Assembly (NCBI GenBank): GCA_030679255.1
Contig: JAUXTO010000017.1
Coordinates: 1,925-65,924, forward strand
Reading direction: 5' to 3'
Source: Candidatus Gottesmanbacteria bacterium
GTDB taxonomy: Bacteria > Patescibacteriota > Microgenomatia > UBA10105 > UBA927
DNA: 64,000 nucleotides
A program made the position numbers and the translations under genes. Under the pieces are notes generated by a model. That model was not told where the DNA came from, did no database searches, and was given only the letters and a program-made list of their open reading frames with translations. Positions within the stretch are counted from its first letter, which is position 1. Every line of letters starts with the position of its first letter. Positions 21,992 through 53,566 of the stretch are shown piece by piece.

Positions 21992-24009
<2,018 letters not shown>

Positions 24010-34279: not shown

Positions 34280-34675
34280 TTATGAAGAAGATTTCTTTAT
34301 GACAAAAGCATCGGTCAGAAGCCGCGACTGCCAATCGTACGCCTGAGCAATCTCTCCGGAACGGGCAAGTTTGACGAGCTCCTGGGTGATGAGTCGCGCC
34401 AAGTGATACCCTCCCAACCCTTCGCGGTCAGCAGTTTGGACAAACAACGGGTGATCACGGTTGATAAAAATGATGCCTCCCTCCACAAAGCTCTAGCATG
34501 CCAGATTCATGCCACCGGTTTTGACGACACTCGCATCAGCATCGTAGGCGTTGGCGACGAGCTCTCGCACGAGATCCAGGCTCTCCGCATAGAGCCGGGT
34601 GCCAATAGTAGTCAAGTGTGATTTATCAAACGTAATAGGGATCGTGGATTGCTGCACGGGACTATTATATACCAA
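34280..34675 (-). pseudogene. GHKL-ATPase N-terminal remnant with the same in-frame TAG (copy 2)
   Basis: about 90% nt identity to copy 1; LVRELVANAYDADASVVKTGGMNLAC-TAG-SFVEGGIIFINRDHP. Confidence 0.5.
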
Positions 34676-34808
34676 ACGCTCCTACAATTCCCCCAGCGAA
34701 AAAATCATGCCAATTTCCCTCCGGTCGGGAGTAAAATAGCATGATTTATTTTATGCCACCAATTCCGTCATGATCAGCGCCGCCGGACCGTCCCGAAATT
34801 CACTCTCA

Positions 34809-42347: not shown

Positions 42348-44678
42348 ATGCTTCCTAAACCAAAAAACATAAAAAGGACTACATCTGCACCGTCCCGACC
42401 GGTCGTTTTTTTTCTTGCGCTTGCCTATATTCTTATGGCTCTCGGAGATGGAGTACGGATGGGTTTTTGGTGGGTCATACGATTGATAATCGTATCCTAT
42501 AAAAAAATTTCCTTACAATCCCGTCCGGTCAAAATATTGGTAACAACGATACGGATGCGTATGCGCGTGGCAATAAGCGTCCGGAAGTTATTCCTCCGTC
42601 AATGGATACAACGGGTAATACCATCAACCAAACCGAAGAAATACGCACGCAAGAACAGACGATGGAACGACATACTTCCCAAATTTTCCCTACCGCAATT
42701 TATTGGGCTCCATCCACTCATGGTTTTCATCTTAGGATCTCTCTCAACGATATTTTTTATCGCGATTCCGCTCATTGCCTATCTCTGGCTCCGCTCTCTC
42801 CCGAACCCTACTCTCCTTACAGTCCGCGATCTTGATGTGACGACAAAGGTCTTTGACCGAAATGGGGCGCTCTTGTATGAAATTTACGCCGATCAAAACC
42901 GCACGCCACTTGCTTTGAGCGACATTCCAAAATACGTCATCCAGGCAACGATAGCCATTGAAGATAAAAATTTTTATTCCCACCAGGGATTTTCCCTCTC
43001 CGGCATGGCCCGCGCCGCACGGGAAACCATGCTCAAGGGCCGCGTTCAAGGAGGATCGACTATTACACAACAGCTCATAAAGTCAGCGCTCCTCACCCCG
43101 GAAATAAACGTTTCCAGAAAGATTAAAGAGATCATTCTCGCTTTTTGGGCAGAACGTCTGTACACAAAAAATCAATTATTAGAAATGTACCTCAATCAAG
43201 TGCCGTATGGGGGCACTGCGTGGGGTATAGAATCCGCGGCACAAACGTATTTTAGTAAATCGGCAAAAAACCTAACCCTCGCTGAAGCTTCACTTTTAGC
43301 AGGACTTCCTGCTGCTCCGAGCGAATATTCACCATTTGGCACGCATGTCGACCGGGCGTTTTCCCGCCAGGGAGAAGTGCTCCGGAGAATGGTCGAAGAC
43401 CGGTATATTACTGAATCTCAAGCCCGGGAAGCCCTCGCGCAGGAAATCCGCTTTGCAAAACCCCGGATCGGTATCCGCGCTCCGCACTTTGTCATGTATA
43501 TTAAAGAAATTCTTGAACGCCGCTACGGCCCGAGGCTCGTCGAACGCGGGGGCCTGCGAATAAAAACGTCGCTTGATCTGGGCCTCCAGGAACGTGTCGA
43601 AGAAATAGTCAATACCAATATTACAAAGCTTGCCTCCCTTCGCGTCGGCAACGGAGCGGCGATCGTCACGAATCCAAAAACCGGAGAAATACTTGCGATG
43701 GTCGGAAGCCGGGACTATTTTGATACCACGCGTGAAGGCAACGTCAATGTCACGGTTGCACACCGGCAACCAGGATCATCCATCAAGGTGGTGACCTATG
43801 CCGCCGCTATGGAAAAAGGGTTTACTGCCGGCTCAATTCTTGATGATAGTCCGGTTTCCTATCCGCAAATCGGTGCACCTGCTTATACCCCGGTCAATTA
43901 TGACAGTAAATTCCATGGCTTTGTGCCTCTCCGGTACGCGCTGGGAAATTCTTATAATATCCCGGCAATACGCACGATAGCCGCAATCGGCGTCCCGGCT
44001 GTCATCCAAAAGGGTCGGGCTATGGGCATCACTTCTTGGATCGACGAAAGTAGGTATGGACTCGCGCTTACGTTAGGCGGCGGAGAAGTCACTATGCTTG
44101 ATATGGCTTCAGTCTTTGGTACATTAGCAAATTTGGGAACGAGAGTAGAATTATTACCCATCACAGAGGTGAGCGATTATACGGGCAGAATTCTCGAAAA
44201 AAATAAATCAAACGAACGCCCACAGGCAGTCAAACCGGAAGTTGCCTGGATCATTGGAAATATCTTAAGTGATAATAATGCGCGGACTGCTGCCTTCGGC
44301 CCCAACTCGATGCTCGTCATCCCCGGTAAAACGGTGTCAGTCAAAACCGGCACGACCGATAACCTGCGGGACAACTGGACCATCGGCTACACGCCAAGCG
44401 TTGTTGCTTCCGTCTGGGTGGGAAACAACAACAACAGCCCGATGAATCCCTACCTTGTCTCCGGAGTTACCGGCGCCGCGCCGATCTGGAATGCCATCAT
44501 GACGGATATCCTCAAAGACCGACCTGATGAAACACTCCCGCGTCCTGACGGCGTCATCAGTGTCCCCTGCTACTATGGCCGCCCTGAATATTTTCTCATC
44601 GGTACCCAACCCACGAGCGGCCAGTGCGCTCCACTCCCTACACCACGACCAACCGAAAGTCCTACGCCTACTCCGTAA
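42348..44678 (+). CDS. class A penicillin-binding protein, second paralog
   Basis: EDKNFYSHQG, GGSTITQQL, SSIKV, KTGTT; start chosen at MLPKPKN. Confidence 0.85.
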   Translation: MLPKPKNIKRTTSAPSRPVVFFLALAYILMALGDGVRMGFWWVIRLIIVSYKKISLQSRPVKILVTTIRMRMRVAISVRKLFLRQWIQRVIPSTKPKKYARKNRRWNDILPKFSLPQFIGLHPLMVFILGSLSTIFFIAIPLIAYLWLRSLPNPTLLTVRDLDVTTKVFDRNGALLYEIYADQNRTPLALSDIPKYVIQATIAIEDKNFYSHQGFSLSGMARAARETMLKGRVQGGSTITQQLIKSALLTPEINVSRKIKEIILAFWAERLYTKNQLLEMYLNQVPYGGTAWGIESAAQTYFSKSAKNLTLAEASLLAGLPAAPSEYSPFGTHVDRAFSRQGEVLRRMVEDRYITESQAREALAQEIRFAKPRIGIRAPHFVMYIKEILERRYGPRLVERGGLRIKTSLDLGLQERVEEIVNTNITKLASLRVGNGAAIVTNPKTGEILAMVGSRDYFDTTREGNVNVTVAHRQPGSSIKVVTYAAAMEKGFTAGSILDDSPVSYPQIGAPAYTPVNYDSKFHGFVPLRYALGNSYNIPAIRTIAAIGVPAVIQKGRAMGITSWIDESRYGLALTLGGGEVTMLDMASVFGTLANLGTRVELLPITEVSDYTGRILEKNKSNERPQAVKPEVAWIIGNILSDNNARTAAFGPNSMLVIPGKTVSVKTGTTDNLRDNWTIGYTPSVVASVWVGNNNNSPMNPYLVSGVTGAAPIWNAIMTDILKDRPDETLPRPDGVISVPCYYGRPEYFLIGTQPTSGQCAPLPTPRPTESPTPTP

Positions 44679-45165
44679 CCACGACTGTTCCGAAATCTGA
44701 TGCCAATACGTGATTGTGGTACTTCCATGTACCGACCTTCACAAACGTGTACTCATACGTACCGCCGTTTGTGACGCTTTTCAACTGATCAAAACCAGGA
44801 AGCAATTGATGCGTCGGATGCATGGCGGAGGCAACCCACATACCTTGCGTTCCTTTATTGGCCCATCGCACAGTGCTTCCCACTTTAACGGTGACACTTT
44901 TTGGGGTAAATCCCTGCGCATCATAGGTAACCGTGGCACTTGCTTTTGTCGCTCCACCTTTCTCCATCGCGCCACCAGAGGCTCCCGTCGCTGAATCATC
45001 TGATCCTAACGAAACGGTTGGTTCAACCGCCGGAGTTTCCTTTGTCACGACGCTTGTATCTTTTTTTGTCATGTCCGGATACGTAGAATTCCCTTTCAGG
45101 AAATACCACCCCGCGCCGACCCCGACAAGAAGAACGAGCAATCCTACTACTAATTTATTGTTCAT
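44668..45165 (-). CDS. hypothetical secreted protein, possibly cupredoxin-like
   Basis: signal anchor, beta-rich C-terminal domain with His residues (MHPTH, YHNH); weak. Confidence 0.3.
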   Translation of the reverse strand: MNNKLVVGLLVLLVGVGAGWYFLKGNSTYPDMTKKDTSVVTKETPAVEPTVSLGSDDSATGASGGAMEKGGATKASATVTYDAQGFTPKSVTVKVGSTVRWANKGTQGMWVASAMHPTHQLLPGFDQLKSVTNGGTYEYTFVKVGTWKYHNHVLASDFGTVVVTE

Positions 45166-45414
45166 TATGTATTCACCACCTTTTAGAAACACTTAACGAA
45201 TAAAATGAGTTTAGTGTTTCTTAAACCCGCCGCCCCGCTTCGCTATGGCTTCAGCGAGGCGAGTCACGCGCCCTTTACGACGTGTACGAATAGTACTGAA
45301 AAGTCGTAAAGCAAGCGTAGGCGGGCTATGAAAAATCGTCAACTTTGTATTTTATCTCACCCATCATAGTACATCCAAACAGCAAAAAACAATCACTCAA
45401 AAACATGACAAGTT

Positions 45415-45442
45415 TTGACACTGGGAAAATATATGGTATACT
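45415..45442 (+). promoter_or_regulatory. sigma70-like promoter (TTGACA-16-TATACT)
   Basis: ttgacactgggaaaatatatggtatact, read directly. Confidence 0.6.
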
Positions 45443-45772
45443 ACCCTTTACAATTCAATATGGCGATGAAGGAGAAAGCCCTGAGCTAGTCGAAGGGCCT
45501 CGAGCTCCCGAGCCAGTTTCCGAAAAAATCCGAAAGGAAATTAGGAAACATATAAGGTAATCTTTATCTCTGTCAAGGCAAAGTCCCGAGCGAAGTCGAG
45601 GGGCTGACACAGAGGTTTTTATGTAGCCATTTTGGTCTACTCGGATTACGAAGAAGCGTGGCACCGCGTATATTGCTAAGCTAGTCCGTCTTTGGCGGAC
45701 GAAGCTTTAGCGAAGTCCGCCGCTTCAGGGTTTCACACACGGTTGTGAGATTCTGAACCGGCGGATTTTTTG
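45443..45772 (+). promoter_or_regulatory. about 330 nt structured leader of the arg operon with alternative hairpins; contains a T-box-core-like GCGUGGCACCGCG (45656-45668)
   Basis: hairpin ggcggac...gtccgcc (45695-45720) shares its 3' arm with the terminator 5' arm, so the two structures exclude each other; riboswitch/T-box class not established. Confidence 0.4.
45714..45772 (+). terminator. intrinsic terminator immediately upstream of the argG RBS (attenuator)
   Basis: tccgccg...cggcgga stem followed by TTTTTTGTT, then GGAG-N7-ATG. Confidence 0.55.
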
Positions 45773-45784
45773 TTGGAGAAAAAT

Positions 45785-46990
45785 ATGAAAAAAATCGTTT
45801 TAGCATTTTCGGGTGGACTCGATACATCATTTTGCGTGCCATATCTTAAAGAAAAAGGGTACGAGGTTTATGCTGCTACGGTCGATACCGGTGGATTTAC
45901 ACAAAAAGATATTCTAAAAATTAAAGATAGGGCAAAAGAGTTGGATGTCAAAAAACACTACGTTATCGACGGAAAAATATCTCTGTATGACAAGATAGTC
46001 TCCTACGTCATCAAAGGAAATATTCTCAGAGGCGGCGTCTACCCGCTCTGTGCCGGTCCGGAAAGAATTATCCAGGCGATAGAAGTTATAAAAATTGCAA
46101 AAAAAATTGGCGCACAAGCAGTCGCCCACGGGTCAACAGGAGCCGGAAACGATCAGGTGAGATTTGATGTGGCCATCCAAACGCTCGCGCCGGAACTGGA
46201 AATCATTACACCGATCAGAGAGCTGGGAATTACTAGAGGAGGAGAAGTCGCGTTTTTAGAAAAACACGGGATAGCCGTTGAAAAATCCTCGAAAGATTAC
46301 TCAATCAACAAGGGAATGCTTGGTACGACAATCGGCGGCAAGGAGACAAAAAACTCCTGGGAATTACCGCCGGACGAAGTGTACCCGACAGTCGTAAGCA
46401 TTGATACTGCTCCCAAAAACGGTGAGGAAATTATTATTTCTTTTGAAAAAGGATTACCGATGGCTCTAAATGGCAAACCGATGAGTGGAATAGAAATAAT
46501 GAATTATTTAGACAACCTCGGCGCCAAACATGGTGTAGGAAAAGGAATGCATTTGGGAAATACGATTTTAGGAATCAAAGGAAGGGTTGTCTTTGAAGCT
46601 CCAGCAGCCCTGATCCTCATCAAGGCCCATAAGGAACTGGAAAAACTCGTGCTCACAAAGTGGCAGTCATATTGGAAAGATAGTGTATCGGAAGCATACG
46701 GAAATTTTATCCATGAAGGATTGTATTTCGATCCGGTCGTGAATGATATTGAGGCAATGATTGATAGTAGCCAAACGGTAGTCACTGGTGACGTAAAAAT
46801 GAAACTTCATAAAGGAAACATCGTCGTCGTTGGCGTCAAGAGCCCGTATTCGCTTATGGATAAAAGCATCGCGACGTACGGCGAACAAAATCTTCTTTGG
46901 ACCGCGGCTGATGCGGCAGGTTTCAGCAAAATTTATGGGTTGCAAGGAGTTCTGGCGGGAAAGGCAAAAACGTTAGGAGGATCGATATGA
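45785..46990 (+). CDS. argG: argininosuccinate synthase
   Basis: AFSGGLDTS, GSTGAGNDQVRFD. Confidence 0.9.
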   Translation: MKKIVLAFSGGLDTSFCVPYLKEKGYEVYAATVDTGGFTQKDILKIKDRAKELDVKKHYVIDGKISLYDKIVSYVIKGNILRGGVYPLCAGPERIIQAIEVIKIAKKIGAQAVAHGSTGAGNDQVRFDVAIQTLAPELEIITPIRELGITRGGEVAFLEKHGIAVEKSSKDYSINKGMLGTTIGGKETKNSWELPPDEVYPTVVSIDTAPKNGEEIIISFEKGLPMALNGKPMSGIEIMNYLDNLGAKHGVGKGMHLGNTILGIKGRVVFEAPAALILIKAHKELEKLVLTKWQSYWKDSVSEAYGNFIHEGLYFDPVVNDIEAMIDSSQTVVTGDVKMKLHKGNIVVVGVKSPYSLMDKSIATYGEQNLLWTAADAAGFSKIYGLQGVLAGKAKTLGGSI

Positions 46991-47229
46991 AAGAATTATA
47001 TTTCTTTCTCCAAACAGGAACTATTCTCAAAACTCTATCACCAGCAGGAATGTTTATATCAATCGAAGAAGATGAAGTTGATGCTACGCGTGATTATGAA
47101 GTTGATGGCCTTTGGTGGTATGGAACCAAACAAAATCGTGAACGGACAATTTTATTTAGGCATCAAGTACCATTTGTAACAATCGTTTCAGAAAAAGAAG
47201 CATGGGAAAAAGCATTTAAAGTCGGATAA
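46987..47229 (+). CDS. hypothetical small protein
   Basis: 80 aa, ATGA overlap with argG stop; no motif. Confidence 0.3.
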   Translation: MKELYFFLQTGTILKTLSPAGMFISIEEDEVDATRDYEVDGLWWYGTKQNRERTILFRHQVPFVTIVSEKEAWEKAFKVG

Positions 47230-47233
47230 ATAT

Positions 47234-48259
47234 ATGAAACTTAAAAAAATACCATCAATAGTCAAAAATGTTCCGTTGTCCGACGAGGTACAGGTCGGAA
47301 GGTCTATCGTGCCAGAAGAAGGACTCATTATTCTTGTGGAAGCGCTTGACGATGAAGGGAAAAATAATGTGCTGGAATTTACCACTGGCAGATTGGGAAA
47401 ACTGATAAAGGGCGACGTGGTGCCGGCCGTACTCGGAAAAAGAAGGGCCCTCAAAGAATTTGCCGGTGACATACCGCAGGCACTCAAGCCCGGCGATGAG
47501 TTGTATTGGCTTTGTGAAAGCGGACTCGTGGGAGAAATAGTCGGCGTCAACGAGCGCTGGGGAACGCCCATGAAAGTAAAAGTATTGGGAGCCTTGCTTC
47601 ATCACGGAAAAACGCTCAATATTAAACATTCCGCTATTCCCTGGCAAAATGATGTTGTCAAAAGCGCTCCGATTGTGGCGGTTCTCGCCACCTGTATGGA
47701 TTCGGGCAAGACGACGCTCGTTTGTAAACTGGCAGAACACTTTAGAAATAATGGGTTAACCGTTATGGGTGCCAAGCTCACGGGAGTCGCGTTTATGCAG
47801 GATCCTTTTAAGATGAAAGATAACGGACTGGATACCGTTATGGATTTCGTCGATGCCGGGCTGCCTTCGACTTGCGGGAATGCTGAGGATGCGATCAAGG
47901 CCGCCTGTGGAATCATCACGGAATTGAACAACGGAGAGCCCGACCTCATCCTTGCAGAATTTGGAGACGGCATCATCGGAGAATATAACGTGGCGTCAAT
48001 TATCACCCATCCCTCTATCAAAAAACATGTTGTGATGACCGTGGTCGCCGCCAATGATTTGATGGCCGCCTGGGGAGCAAAAAAGAAAATGACGGAATTA
48101 GGATTCACGATCGACATGCTTACCGGACCGGTCGCCAACAGTCACGTCGGCGTTGAGTATATCGAACATAATTTCGGGATACCGGCCGAAAGCAATCAAC
48201 ACGCCATCCCCAAAACAATCGCCATTTTGGAAAAGAAAATGAAGGAGGCAAGTGTATGA
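47234..48259 (+). CDS. uncharacterised P-loop protein (DUF1611-like?)
   Basis: Walker-A-like VAVLATCMDSGKTTL in the C-terminal half; DUF1611 assignment is from memory only. Confidence 0.3.
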   Translation: MKLKKIPSIVKNVPLSDEVQVGRSIVPEEGLIILVEALDDEGKNNVLEFTTGRLGKLIKGDVVPAVLGKRRALKEFAGDIPQALKPGDELYWLCESGLVGEIVGVNERWGTPMKVKVLGALLHHGKTLNIKHSAIPWQNDVVKSAPIVAVLATCMDSGKTTLVCKLAEHFRNNGLTVMGAKLTGVAFMQDPFKMKDNGLDTVMDFVDAGLPSTCGNAEDAIKAACGIITELNNGEPDLILAEFGDGIIGEYNVASIITHPSIKKHVVMTVVAANDLMAAWGAKKKMTELGFTIDMLTGPVANSHVGVEYIEHNFGIPAESNQHAIPKTIAILEKKMKEASV

Positions 48260-53097: not shown

Positions 53098-53566
53098 ATG
53101 TATACCTATCCGCCACCTTGCTCGCCGCATAACTTTCCGGCTTAATCTTCACCGCGTACCCTGACCCCCGAATCATACCGACGATCTCCGTGATCATCTC
53201 ACGGGTCTTGCCAAATTGTCCGATATCCACATGAATTTCCACGTCATATTTGGTCACCCCATCTTTATGAAGGAGGGCCACGACCGTCTCTGCCATCTCG
53301 AGAGACATCGTCGCTTCTTCATACATCCGTTGCCGCAGGACGTACTTTTTTTTGATGACGATCCGTTTCCAAAAATAAATACCACCACGTCCCACGCGAT
53401 GCACGACAATCGTCGTGACAAAATCCACACCCGCCGCATTGTGTGGCTGAGAATCGGTCCCAACCACCAACTGATACTTACTTTCGGGGTCCGCAGCAAG
53501 AAACGCGAGGATATGTTCGCGAATTTGAGGTAATTCTAAATTTCCGTAGGTAGGACTTTGGAACAT
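53096..53566 (-). CDS. RNase-H-like YkuK family protein (DUF458)
   Basis: YQLVVGTDSQ...TTIVVHRVGRGGIYFWKR matches B. subtilis YkuK pattern (VVGTDS...IVIHRIGKGGTYF). Confidence 0.6.
   Translation of the reverse strand: MFQSPTYGNLELPQIREHILAFLAADPESKYQLVVGTDSQPHNAAGVDFVTTIVVHRVGRGGIYFWKRIVIKKKYVLRQRMYEEATMSLEMAETVVALLHKDGVTKYDVEIHVDIGQFGKTREMITEIVGMIRGSGYAVKIKPESYAASKVADRYT

Follow-up and report, generated by a model that had tools for sequence, protein, structure and literature searches.

The window analysed here is a 64,000-nucleotide stretch of DNA from Candidatus Gottesmanbacteria, a member of the Patescibacteria/Microgenomates group. It contains an arginine biosynthesis operon on the forward strand, headed by argG, a gene call made in a preliminary description of this DNA and confirmed by Pfam; the encoded ArgG has 100% identity to a 'Candidatus Gottesmanbacteria bacterium' protein at NCBI. 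Downstream of argG follow, in order, an 80-aa ORF, a 341-aa ORF without a family, OTCase, argH, an ArgE/DapE-type deacylase and a YgeW-like carbamoyltransferase, the operon ending at about 53066 (Pfam and NCBIfam assignments). Between the promoter and argG lies a long structured leader (Table 1), which folds with a predicted free energy of -124.5 kcal/mol (z = -6.1; none of 100 shuffles was equally stable). Homologous leaders were gathered from contigs encoding ArgG relatives.

Table 1. Elements of the argG leader and its surroundings, in positions of the window
Feature	Position	Strand	Sequence or composition	Support or remark
Sigma-70-type promoter	45415..45442	+	TTGACA, 16-nt spacer, TG-extended TATACT	11/12 matches; same distance from invariant leader start in homologs
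Invariant leader 5' end	45450..45461	+	ACAAUUCAAUAU	11/12 positions invariant (10 aligned leaders); same motif in L088
Stem I, truncated type	45461..45515	+		Rfam alignment; RNAalifold (P1, P2); covariation (P1, cap)
P1 and P2 of Stem I	within 45461..45515	+	P1 UGGC/GCCA; P2 GGAG/CUCC	both predicted independently by RNAalifold
K-turn	45465-69 opposite 45509-11	+	GAUGA opposite CGA	aligns to Rfam consensus
Specifier internal loop	within Stem I	+	AAA on 5' side, CU-CGA-G on 3' side
Cap hairpin of Stem I	45478-45498	+		small, variable
Specifier codon and conserved purine	45501..45504	+	CGA (Arg) + G	directly 5' of the CUCC strand (lower helix)
Stem II	45516..45549	+	lower helix GUUUCC/GGAAAC, cap CC-GAAA-GG
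Stem II S-turn region	45522-29 opposite 45538-43	+	GAAAAAAU opposite AAAUUA
Px, Stem III-like long-range helix	45557..45649	+	GUAAUC 45557-62 with GAUUAC 45644-49	register set by hand
Hairpin Hb	45567..45615	+	UCUCUGU/ACAGAGG, invariant loop start CAAGGC, then U-run	RNAalifold
Tandem-GA hairpin inserted in Hb	45585-45603	+
Hairpin Hc	45623..45640	+	GUAG...CUAC	small, variable junction element; in some relatives, absent from L081 and L084
Antiterminator (discriminator core)	45653..45726	+		constrained folds, covariation
A1	45653-58 with 45721-26	+	GAAGCG with CGCUUC
T-box-like core	45656-45668	+	GCGTGGCACCGCG
T-box bulge, 7 nt	45659-65	+	UGGCACC
A2	45666-68 with 45718-20	+	GCG with CGC	extended by 40-nt insertion
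Tip of A2 insertion	45684-45700	+	GUCCGUC-UUU-GGCGGAC
Intrinsic terminator	45716..45774	+	long hairpin 45716-45765, then UUUUUU GUU
Terminator arms and T6	45716-45728, 45753-45765; T6 45766-45771	+	TCCGCCG(C)TTCAG and CTGAA(C)CGGCGGA
Shine-Dalgarno	45775-45778	+	GGAG
argG, first gene of the regulated operon	ATG 45785 to 46990	+		Pfam, NCBIfam

The promoter named in the preliminary description is present. The region has no excess of promoter-like sites (3 found against 2.6 expected), and in the homologous leaders the promoter keeps its position, 7–8 nt upstream of an invariant ACAATTNAATAT; transcription probably starts within the invariant 5' end of the leader. An ARG-box operator within ACAATTNAATAT was considered and rejected by eye, as a variable position breaks the TGAAT half-site. 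At the other end of the leader, the terminator described earlier was also recovered, with its arms, T6, the adjacent GGAG and the ATG all located, the start codon lying 13 nt after the U-tract. A simple terminator scan had missed it because of its long stem with an inner hairpin.

We then compared the alternative folds of the expression platform. The preliminary description had pointed out a T-box-like core and judged its arrangement relative to the terminator non-canonical. The core is where it was reported, and the 11-mer GTGGNACCRYG has a single exact match in the window; when a mismatch is permitted, however, the motif is no commoner than chance (7 found, 10 expected) and by itself proves nothing. 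The judgement on its arrangement did not survive: the GAAGCG 5' of UGGCACC pairs with CGCUUC in the terminator 5' arm, and GCG pairs with the adjacent CGC to form A2, which is the exact T-box layout, the 5' arm of the terminator including the 3' strands of both A2 and A1. A 40-nt insertion in A2 accounts for the unusual spacing between core and terminator; it is absent from the close relatives L081 and L096 and common to the window and L100, where its pairing is kept. In constrained folds the A1/7-nt bulge/A2 structure forms in all 11 leaders, and both helices covary (A1: GAAGCG/CGCUUC, UAAGGG/CCCUUU, UUAAGG/CCUUGA; A2: GCG/CGC, ACG/CGU, GUG/CAC). All homologs have a terminator followed by U6–U8. 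The terminator state of the window is predicted at -61.9 kcal/mol versus -44.9 kcal/mol for the antiterminator state, and this cost of 17 kcal/mol compares with 3.5–21 kcal/mol over the 11 leaders. A different antiterminator had been proposed earlier, the hairpin GGCGGAC/GUCCGCC. The hairpin itself (45694-45700 with 45715-21) and its overlap with the terminator 5' arm stand, but its role as main antiterminator was rejected: at -35.5 kcal/mol it is about 9 kcal/mol less stable than the A1/A2 fold, and it leaves the conserved GAAGCG/CGCUUC pairing unexplained.

An Rfam scan, suggested in the preliminary description, was carried out on the leader region alone and on the whole window. In the leader, the T-box family RF00230 was the only cis-regulatory family to match, with an alignment over the full model at 26.4 bits (E = 8e-4). 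This score and those of the homologs lie below the Rfam gathering threshold of 93, which is a curated cut-off rather than a biological property; they fall short of it mainly because the distal part of Stem I is deleted. Sub-threshold RF00230 matches of 23–44 bits were found before argG in 10 related contigs from the Candidate Phyla Radiation (CPR), and relatives with a different leader type gave no RF00230 match. Over the whole window, nothing reached the gathering thresholds, and at E <= 1 a single unrelated, weak sRNA match appeared elsewhere. The ykkC, guanidine and all other small-molecule riboswitch families gave no Rfam match in the leader even at E <= 10. Three candidates had been named before: a T-box variant, an amino-acid or guanidine-type riboswitch and a protein-mediated attenuator. 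The first was upheld, the second found no matching family, and nothing in the leader requires the third. We therefore consider it very unlikely that a small-molecule riboswitch (for arginine, guanidine or similar) or a protein acts on the same terminator and antiterminator, with the T-box-like motifs being coincidental; the chance frequency of the 11-mer and the low RF00230 score would fit such a coincidence, but the match spans the whole model and is found again in all homologs.

The Rfam alignment places GCGAUGAAGGAGAA...CUCCCGAGC at the base of T-box Stem I, with the distal part of the stem shortened from 74 to 28 nt. A search for a specifier loop and K-turn, also suggested earlier, located both upstream, as CGA plus purine and as GAUGA/CGA. 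The K-turn, which in the window has the sequence pattern GGC-GAU-GA-A...C-GA-GCC, is kept as a pattern in 10/10 leaders of the window type, and its C-stem covaries (GGC/GCC, GAC/GUC, GGU/ACC). At the specifier position, CGA followed by A or G is invariant (10/10 leaders), whereas the cap hairpin above it is completely variable. The codon complements the UCG anticodon of tRNA-Arg(UCG), and as an Arg codon CGA fits the regulated genes, since argG, argF and argH lie 3' of the leader. [quoted passage not shown] The distal elbow platform of Stem I, formed by interdigitated double T-loops, is absent; nothing but the variable cap tops the specifier loop, and in L091 it comes down to GGC-AAAA-GCC. A review describes the distal double-T-loop platform as a general requirement of transcriptional T-boxes, which counts against a T-box reading here; however, the platform is also missing in accepted actinobacterial T-boxes and is thus not family-defining (PMC7583486).

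Conservation of the leader in relatives, a further check proposed at the outset, was quantified over 10 leaders. The covariation table covers 7 helices with 35 base pairs. Pairing is kept in 98.6% of its cells, versus 77% in shuffles and about 45% with slid partners, and 23 of the 35 pairs show compensatory double changes; none of 500 shuffles reached the observed values. In this table the registers of Px and of the cap hairpin were placed by hand, and RNAalifold recovered P1, P2, Stem II and Hb unaided. A leave-one-out covariance model of Stems I and II, built from 8 homologs, scored the window leader at 97 bits (E = 1e-19) and found nothing else in the 64-kb window, a second T-box included. 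No extra T-box copies were found in the flanks of related loci. Three sites with a discriminator plus terminator pattern were dismissed, those at 53462 (-) and 34604 (-) lying in ORF or pseudogene-like sequence and that at 22183 (+) having a weak AAA/TTT A2. A genome scan for argG loci yielded one CPR relative (L001); the other loci were mostly from Bacteroidota and Gemmatimonadota, without a leader of the window type.

Downstream of Stem I, the lower helix of Stem II has 6/6 pairs in 9/10 leaders and 5/6 in L001, with double changes at 5 pairs. Beside this covarying helix, nine homologs show the loop-E (AGUA/GAA) motif typical of T-box Stem II, in the form GAAGAAAU / AAAGUA. In the window the 3' strand reads AUUA in place of AGUA, the bulged G being replaced by U, and AUUA occurs also in L088. 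Helix Px closes a junction that encloses hairpins Hb and Hc, with GAA and then A1 on its 3' side. In its hand-set register, Px is found in 10/10 leaders with five unrelated, covarying sequences; its flanks are also kept in 10/10 leaders, (A/U)(A/G)AG on the 5' side and RAA plus A1 on the 3' side. The 3' strand of Px coincides with the Stem III of Rfam and ends 3–4 nt before A1 in all leaders, but Px differs from a canonical T-box Stem III in enclosing further hairpins. Of the 8 pairs of Hb, which RNAalifold predicts independently, 4 show compensatory changes and none is broken; the GUCAAGG of the Hb loop is invariant among the aligned leaders. Several pairings were inspected by eye for a Stem IIA/B pseudoknot, and in the window-type leaders no convincing, conserved one was found; the candidate elements, the Hb loop GUCAAGG and the U-run, are invariant, so covariation is uninformative about them. 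L088 carries a canonical ACGG...CCGUAA (Stem IIA/B, F-box).

The conservation of these helices also bears on ribosome-mediated attenuation through a leader peptide. The short ORF MAMKEKALS* overlaps Stem I, and three CPR ArgG relatives (L097, L099, L103) do share a short ORF that is conserved among them; it ends in ...S-R-R-x-F-G-E-(D/G)*, includes two Arg codons and precedes a terminator. The window ORF, however, has no Arg codon, as noted in the preliminary description, and among the T-box-type leaders neither frame nor length of the ORF is conserved, whereas the RNA helices are. Judged from these sequences, the absence of both Arg codons and peptide conservation effectively refutes a leader peptide for the window, and we regard this mechanism as the least probable of those considered, although it is used by other CPR relatives.

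The neighborhoods of the homologous leaders provide an indication of the cognate tRNA. In L091 and L101, genes for tRNA-Arg(UCU) and tRNA-Arg(UCG) lie between the T-box terminator and argG. The tRNA-Arg(UCG), with G73, is directly 3' of the terminator; the bulge reads UGGU in L091 and UGGC in L101, and G73 can pair with either C or U at bulge position 4. In L088 an ultrashort Stem I loop contains CGC-A, the bulge reads UGGU, and the adjoining tRNA-like gene has anticodon GCG and A73-CCA. The 64-kb window contains no tRNA genes, and the match of codon and discriminator is one observed in relatives. The order T-box, tRNA-Arg genes, argG in these relatives suggests a loop with the ligand inside the regulated transcript. 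A small-molecule or protein switch is further opposed by three features that a T-box alone explains: the invariance of the Arg codon in the specifier loop, the UGGN bulge between covarying helices and the adjacent cognate tRNA genes.

Collectively, the analysis shows how the leader is built, that its helices are conserved and covary, that the Arg codon is invariant, that the two folds exclude each other and that relatives encode matching tRNA genes. It is very probable that 45450-45771 forms a tRNA-Arg-specific T-box riboswitch, controlling the argG operon by transcription attenuation. The leader is a divergent T-box that most likely senses uncharged tRNA-Arg to set transcription read-through; tRNA binding, charging discrimination and read-through are what we infer. 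In the proposed mechanism, RNA synthesis would begin about 7 nt 3' of the -10 element, and the nascent RNA would form the short Stem I, with the K-turn at its base and CGA plus purine displayed on the 3' side of the internal loop. Stem II would come next, and tRNA-Arg with anticodon UCG would bind the CGA specifier, the S-turn docking on the codon–anticodon duplex. If this tRNA is uncharged, its 3' end (G73-C-C-A) would pair with the UGGC of the 7-nt bulge and stabilise the antiterminator, in which A1 (GAAGCG/CGCUUC) is joined by the extended A2. The antiterminator would sequester the terminator 5' arm and let RNA polymerase continue into argG and the arginine genes behind it. With charged tRNA, or with none, the terminator hairpin and its U6, the more stable of the two folds, would form instead, and transcription would stop 13 nt before the start codon.

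The S-turn substitution and the A2 insertion could weaken the T-box function in the window. Together with the lack here of tRNA-Arg genes behind the T-box, where relatives have them, the bulged G-to-U change (AAAUUA versus AAAGUA in 9 homologs) and the 40-nt insertion would be expected if the leader descended from a T-box and had lost its tRNA response in this genome, leaving a partial terminator that acts constitutively or a simple structured 5' UTR. We consider such decay unlikely, as the helices, specifier, K-turn and bulge are all intact, and so is the competition of A1 and A2 with the terminator; moreover, AUUA recurs in L088, the insertion recurs with its pairing kept in L100, and the 17 kcal/mol gap between terminator and antiterminator falls inside the range of the homologs.

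If the assignment as a functional T-box is correct, tRNA-sensing riboswitches would reach the Candidate Phyla Radiation, in which, to our knowledge, gene regulation is almost unknown, and at least one CPR lineage would both make arginine and tune the pathway to tRNA charging. Our search of a literature library found no paper linking T-boxes with CPR or Patescibacteria. Since their scores fall far below the Rfam threshold, CPR T-boxes would be missed by standard annotation, and a dedicated model for the variant could reveal many more. As a tentative proposal, which we hold with less than even confidence, these leaders may constitute an unrecognised T-box subclass, systematically missed by annotation in CPR genomes, in which co-transcriptional tRNA sensing acts on an intrinsic terminator without an elbow platform, an 'actinobacterial'-type decoding module is joined to a junction with the invariant GUCAAGG loop, and in some members tRNA-Arg genes head the regulated transcript, so that the riboswitch would control its own ligand. 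The leaders would also offer a natural test case for whether a kinetically controlled (transcriptional) T-box can catch tRNA fast enough without the elbow contact.

With the canonical transcriptional T-boxes of Firmicutes (RF00230) the leader has in common the K-turn at the base of Stem I, an internal loop whose 3' side holds the specifier and a purine, the Stem II S-turn, a Stem III followed by AA, and an A1/UGGNACC/A2 antiterminator opposed to an intrinsic terminator. It differs from them in that Stem I is reduced to a 3–8 bp cap above the specifier loop, without the distal bulge/loop elbow platform, in having no clear IIA/B pseudoknot, in its scores (23–44 bits versus a threshold of 93), and in its CPR/Patescibacteria rather than Gram-positive host. 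The actinobacterial ileS T-boxes of Mycobacterium and Nocardia ('class II', with intermediate or ultrashort Stem I) share the truncated Stem I without an elbow platform and a decoding module of comparable size, about 100 nt, consisting of a short Stem I and the Stem II S-turn (PMC7583486, PMC10651847). Those T-boxes, however, are translational, sequester the Shine-Dalgarno and are Ile-specific, whereas the window leader has an intrinsic terminator with a U-tract, a free Shine-Dalgarno and an Arg codon; and the region from Stem II to A1 is a three-way junction here, versus a compact pseudoknot and a simple Stem III there. A lineage-specific extra stem in the expression platform (antiterminator/terminator domain) of a T-box that is otherwise canonical is also reported for staphylococcal glyS ('stem Sa'; PMC9177973), although insertion position, sequence and host differ, the extra 40 nt of A2 being confined here to the window and L100. 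The expectation in the preliminary description that RNA control of an arg-type operon would be unusual in a CPR-like genome stands, yet in Clostridioides difficile T-boxes precede argG, argC and argH, and arginine biosynthesis genes are thus regulated in both systems (PMC11477304). T-box control of argG is therefore already known; what is unusual here is the combination of a truncated Stem I without elbow platform, an intrinsic terminator and a Patescibacteria/CPR host.

The leader upstream of argG (~45450-45771) is very probably a T-box riboswitch for tRNA-Arg, and a variant of the class that is new both structurally and phylogenetically. The preliminary description had noted a strong promoter, a T-box-like core, a terminator beside a GGAG Shine-Dalgarno sequence and a single short ORF, and the region reads as described, the ORF encoding MAMKEKALS*. 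It had also judged the host to be CPR-like; ArgG, whose identity is backed by Pfam, is identical to a protein annotated in a Candidatus Gottesmanbacteria MAG of the Patescibacteria/Microgenomates group. The leader (342 nt) folds at -124.5 kcal/mol (z = -6.1).

Features of the argG leader and operon in the window, and tRNA genes at two related loci (L091, L101)
Feature	Position	Sequence or remark
Promoter	45415-45442	TTGACA-16-TATACT, near-consensus, TG-extended
Leader start	45450-45461	ACAAUUNAAUAU, first 12 nt
P1 (Stem I)		UGGC/GCCA
K-turn		GGC-GAU-GA ... C-GA-GCC
P2 (Stem I)		GGAG/CUCC
Specifier internal loop	45501-04	5' side 3 nt; 3' side 1-2 nt, then CGA and a purine (position given for CGA plus purine)
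Stem I cap hairpin		small, variable
Tandem G.A module, copy 1	45480-45497	Stem I cap
Stem II	45516-49	lower helix that covaries; above it, the homologs have GAAGAAAU opposite AAAGUA, the AGUA/GAA S-turn pattern
Px, Stem III-like long-range helix		GUAAUC/GAUUAC; 3' strand 3-4 nt before A1, the expected place of Stem III
Hb, hairpin inside Px		invariant loop start GUCAAGG
Tandem G.A module, copy 2	45585-45603	inside Hb loop
T-box-like core	45656-45668	GCGTGGCACCGCG
Discriminator		GAAGCG-UGGCACC-GCG ... CGC-CGCUUC, then terminator
Terminator	45716-45765	long hairpin, then T6; U-tract ends 13 nt before argG
Shine-Dalgarno	45775-78	GGAG
argG start	45785	ATG
80-aa ORF	46987-47229
341-aa ORF	47234-48259	no family
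Rest of operon, in order		ornithine-carbamoyltransferase-type gene; argH; ArgE/DapE deacylase; YgeW-like carbamoyltransferase
tRNA-Arg genes, L091	2139-2212, 2225-2298
tRNA-Arg genes, L101	2322-2394, 2400-2473

With Rfam curated thresholds, no match was obtained across the window. When the leader alone was scanned with Rfam, as the preliminary description had proposed, the one meaningful match was the T-box family (RF00230), which spanned the whole model (45457-45696) at 26.4 bits and E = 8e-4, below the gathering score of 93; guanidine, ykkC and amino-acid riboswitches were absent from the leader even at E <= 10. The alignment fitted well in three places, namely the Stem I base (GCGAUGAAGGAGAA ... 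CUCCCGAGC), part of the Stem II region and the T-box sequence itself, and most of distal Stem I was deleted (74 to 28 nt).

A genome-collection scan with ArgG yielded one CPR relative, L001 (Gottesmanbacteria, ArgG 62% identical), and other homologous leaders were taken from contigs of ArgG relatives found by protein search. Conservation of the leader, a further check suggested at the outset, extended to ten further distinct leaders with the same layout or a variant of it (ArgG 62-90% identical to that of the window), all starting with invariant ACAAUUNAAUAU 7-8 nt downstream of a conserved promoter and ending in a hairpin and U6-U8. In each of them RF00230 was the only cis-regulatory family match, at 23-44 bits. 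A covariance model of Stem I and Stem II from eight of the further leaders, with the window left out, recovered the leader of the window with a score of 97 bits (E = 1e-19) and no other match across the 64 kb, and also picked up L001, which was absent from the seed. The invariance of ACAAUUNAAUAU in all 11 T-box-type leaders, including that of locus L088 despite its different Stem I, is accounted for by neither a pairing partner nor a known operator.

In a condensed alignment of ten leaders, the 35 pairs of seven helices were formed in 98.6% of cells, compared with 77% in shuffles; 23 of them had changed on both sides, the observed values were reached by 0/500 shuffles, and sliding the partners by 1-3 columns reduced pairing to ~45%. 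For Px and the cap the register was chosen manually, the remaining helices being anchored by invariant flanks, and RNAalifold on plain MAFFT alignments independently recovered P1, P2, the lower helix of Stem II and Hb. The specifier loop and K-turn that the preliminary description had recommended looking for were both located. CGA with A or G after it is kept without exception in the 10/10 leaders aligned, although the hairpin directly above it occurs in six different sequences; this is what an Arg specifier codon upstream of arginine-biosynthesis genes should look like. A tandem G.A hairpin module (YYYGAGY-N3-6-YCGARGGR) is present at two sites of the window, both within the leader, and also in L096, L084 and L107; some relatives have it at the tip of Stem I, Stem II or Hb, whereas L091 and L101 lack it. 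It behaves like a modular insert that the leaders can do without, perhaps serving protein binding or a tertiary contact.

When the 3' arm of the terminator was removed and the bulge held single-stranded, every leader folded into helix A1, the 7-nt T-box bulge and helix A2. Compared with the terminator of the same segment, this antiterminator was weaker by 3.5-21 kcal/mol across the leaders (-44.9 vs -61.9 kcal/mol in the window, a gap of 17), as is usual for T-boxes. The A2 of L081 and L096 is a hairpin of 6 bp (GCGGAU-CAC-AUCCGC), and the stretch between the bulge and the 3' strand of A1 measures 15 nt there, compared with 55 nt in the window, where the extra 40 nt form an A2 extension with the tip GUCCGUC-UUU-GGCGGAC; the insertion recurs in L100, its pairing kept via G-U changes. 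It was because of this insertion that the T-box sequence had initially seemed too far from the terminator. The GGCGGAC/GUCCGCC antiterminator proposed at that stage is a possible alternative fold, 9 kcal/mol less stable than the A1/A2 fold.

Sequence, covariation and energy show the structural steps of a T-box mechanism. By analogy with the family, uncharged tRNA-Arg would bind with its anticodon paired to CGA, the Stem II S-turn would stabilize the codon-anticodon duplex, and the free tRNA 3' end would pair with UGGC and lock the antiterminator, so that RNA polymerase would read into argG; otherwise the terminator would form. In L091 and L101, the T-box U-tract is immediately followed by genes for tRNA-Arg(UCU) and tRNA-Arg(UCG), and these by argG. 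The anticodon UCG is the exact complement of CGA, and G73 of this tRNA pairs with bulge position 4, C in L101 and the window or U in L091. The first tRNA gene begins 3-13 nt past the U-tract, leaving no room for a promoter of the tRNA genes' own, and the riboswitch would thus govern how its own ligand is transcribed. In the L088 T-box, Stem I is ultrashort and ends in the loop CGCA, the Stem IIA/F-box is canonical (ACGG...CCGUAA) and the bulge reads UGGU. This T-box adjoins a tRNA-like gene (2387-2460, identical in L089 and L090; three samples), to which the Rfam tRNA model gives 45.8 bits, with the anticodon loop CCGCGGA (GCG, C33), an encoded A73-CCA and a mismatched acceptor stem in which 3-4/7 pairs form. 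The gene resembles a chimera of the tRNA-Arg(UCU) and tRNA-Arg(UCG) genes. Codon (CGC-A) and bulge (UGGU) change together with the neighboring tRNA, matching the T-box prediction.

No tRNA gene was found within the 64-kb window, which has lost the tRNA-Arg genes seen between T-box and argG in L091 and L101. This loss, together with the A2 insertion and an S-turn reading AUUA in place of AGUA, would fit a decayed, non-responsive element, but AUUA also occurs in L088 and may be tolerated, and we consider decay improbable. A functional tRNA-Arg T-box is the reading that we retain.

Other CPR loci with ArgG 67-70% identical to that of the window, one named Roizmanbacteria, have argG leaders without a T-box (L097/L098, ~2340-2480; L099, ~1150-1300; L103-L106, ~2330-2480). 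What they contain instead is a short ORF, M..(S)SRR(L/T)FGE(D/G)*, that is conserved and has two Arg codons side by side, with one or two terminators downstream; they look like classical arginine leader-peptide attenuators, suggesting two attenuation mechanisms for the same operon within Microgenomates.

Within the operon, the 341-aa protein has no Pfam family and a sole weak match (P-loop/MobB-like, 25 bits); it is kept between argG and a carbamoyltransferase or argC gene in all related CPR arginine operons, and is a candidate for a missing arginine-pathway enzyme. A strongly structured minus-strand element (45193-45345; -62.7 kcal/mol, z = -5.45), located within the presumed 5' UTR of a divergent cupredoxin-like gene (44668-45192, minus strand), matched no Rfam family and is kept in L081 except for a 30-nt hairpin indel. 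On the minus strand at 34300-34700, an intergenic stretch of short broken ORFs resembling ATPase-type gene fragments, probably a pseudogene, matched the pattern for the T-box discriminator by chance.

Within the library searched, no paper linking T-boxes with CPR or Patescibacteria was found, which is absence of evidence only. T-boxes are present upstream of argG, argC and argH in C. difficile (PMC11477304), and RNA control of arginine genes therefore has a precedent; the differences lie in architecture and host. Transcriptional T-boxes generally need a long Stem I with a tRNA-elbow platform, and short ones are typically found in the ileS T-boxes of actinobacteria, which act on translation (reviewed in PMC7583486). 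In contrast to the former, the leaders described here lack the distal tRNA-elbow platform, the cap in L091 being just GGC-AAAA-GCC; unlike the latter, they combine a short Stem I with a clear intrinsic terminator and leave the Shine-Dalgarno sequence free. The region from Stem II to A1 forms a three-way junction here, rather than a compact pseudoknot with a simple Stem III after it.
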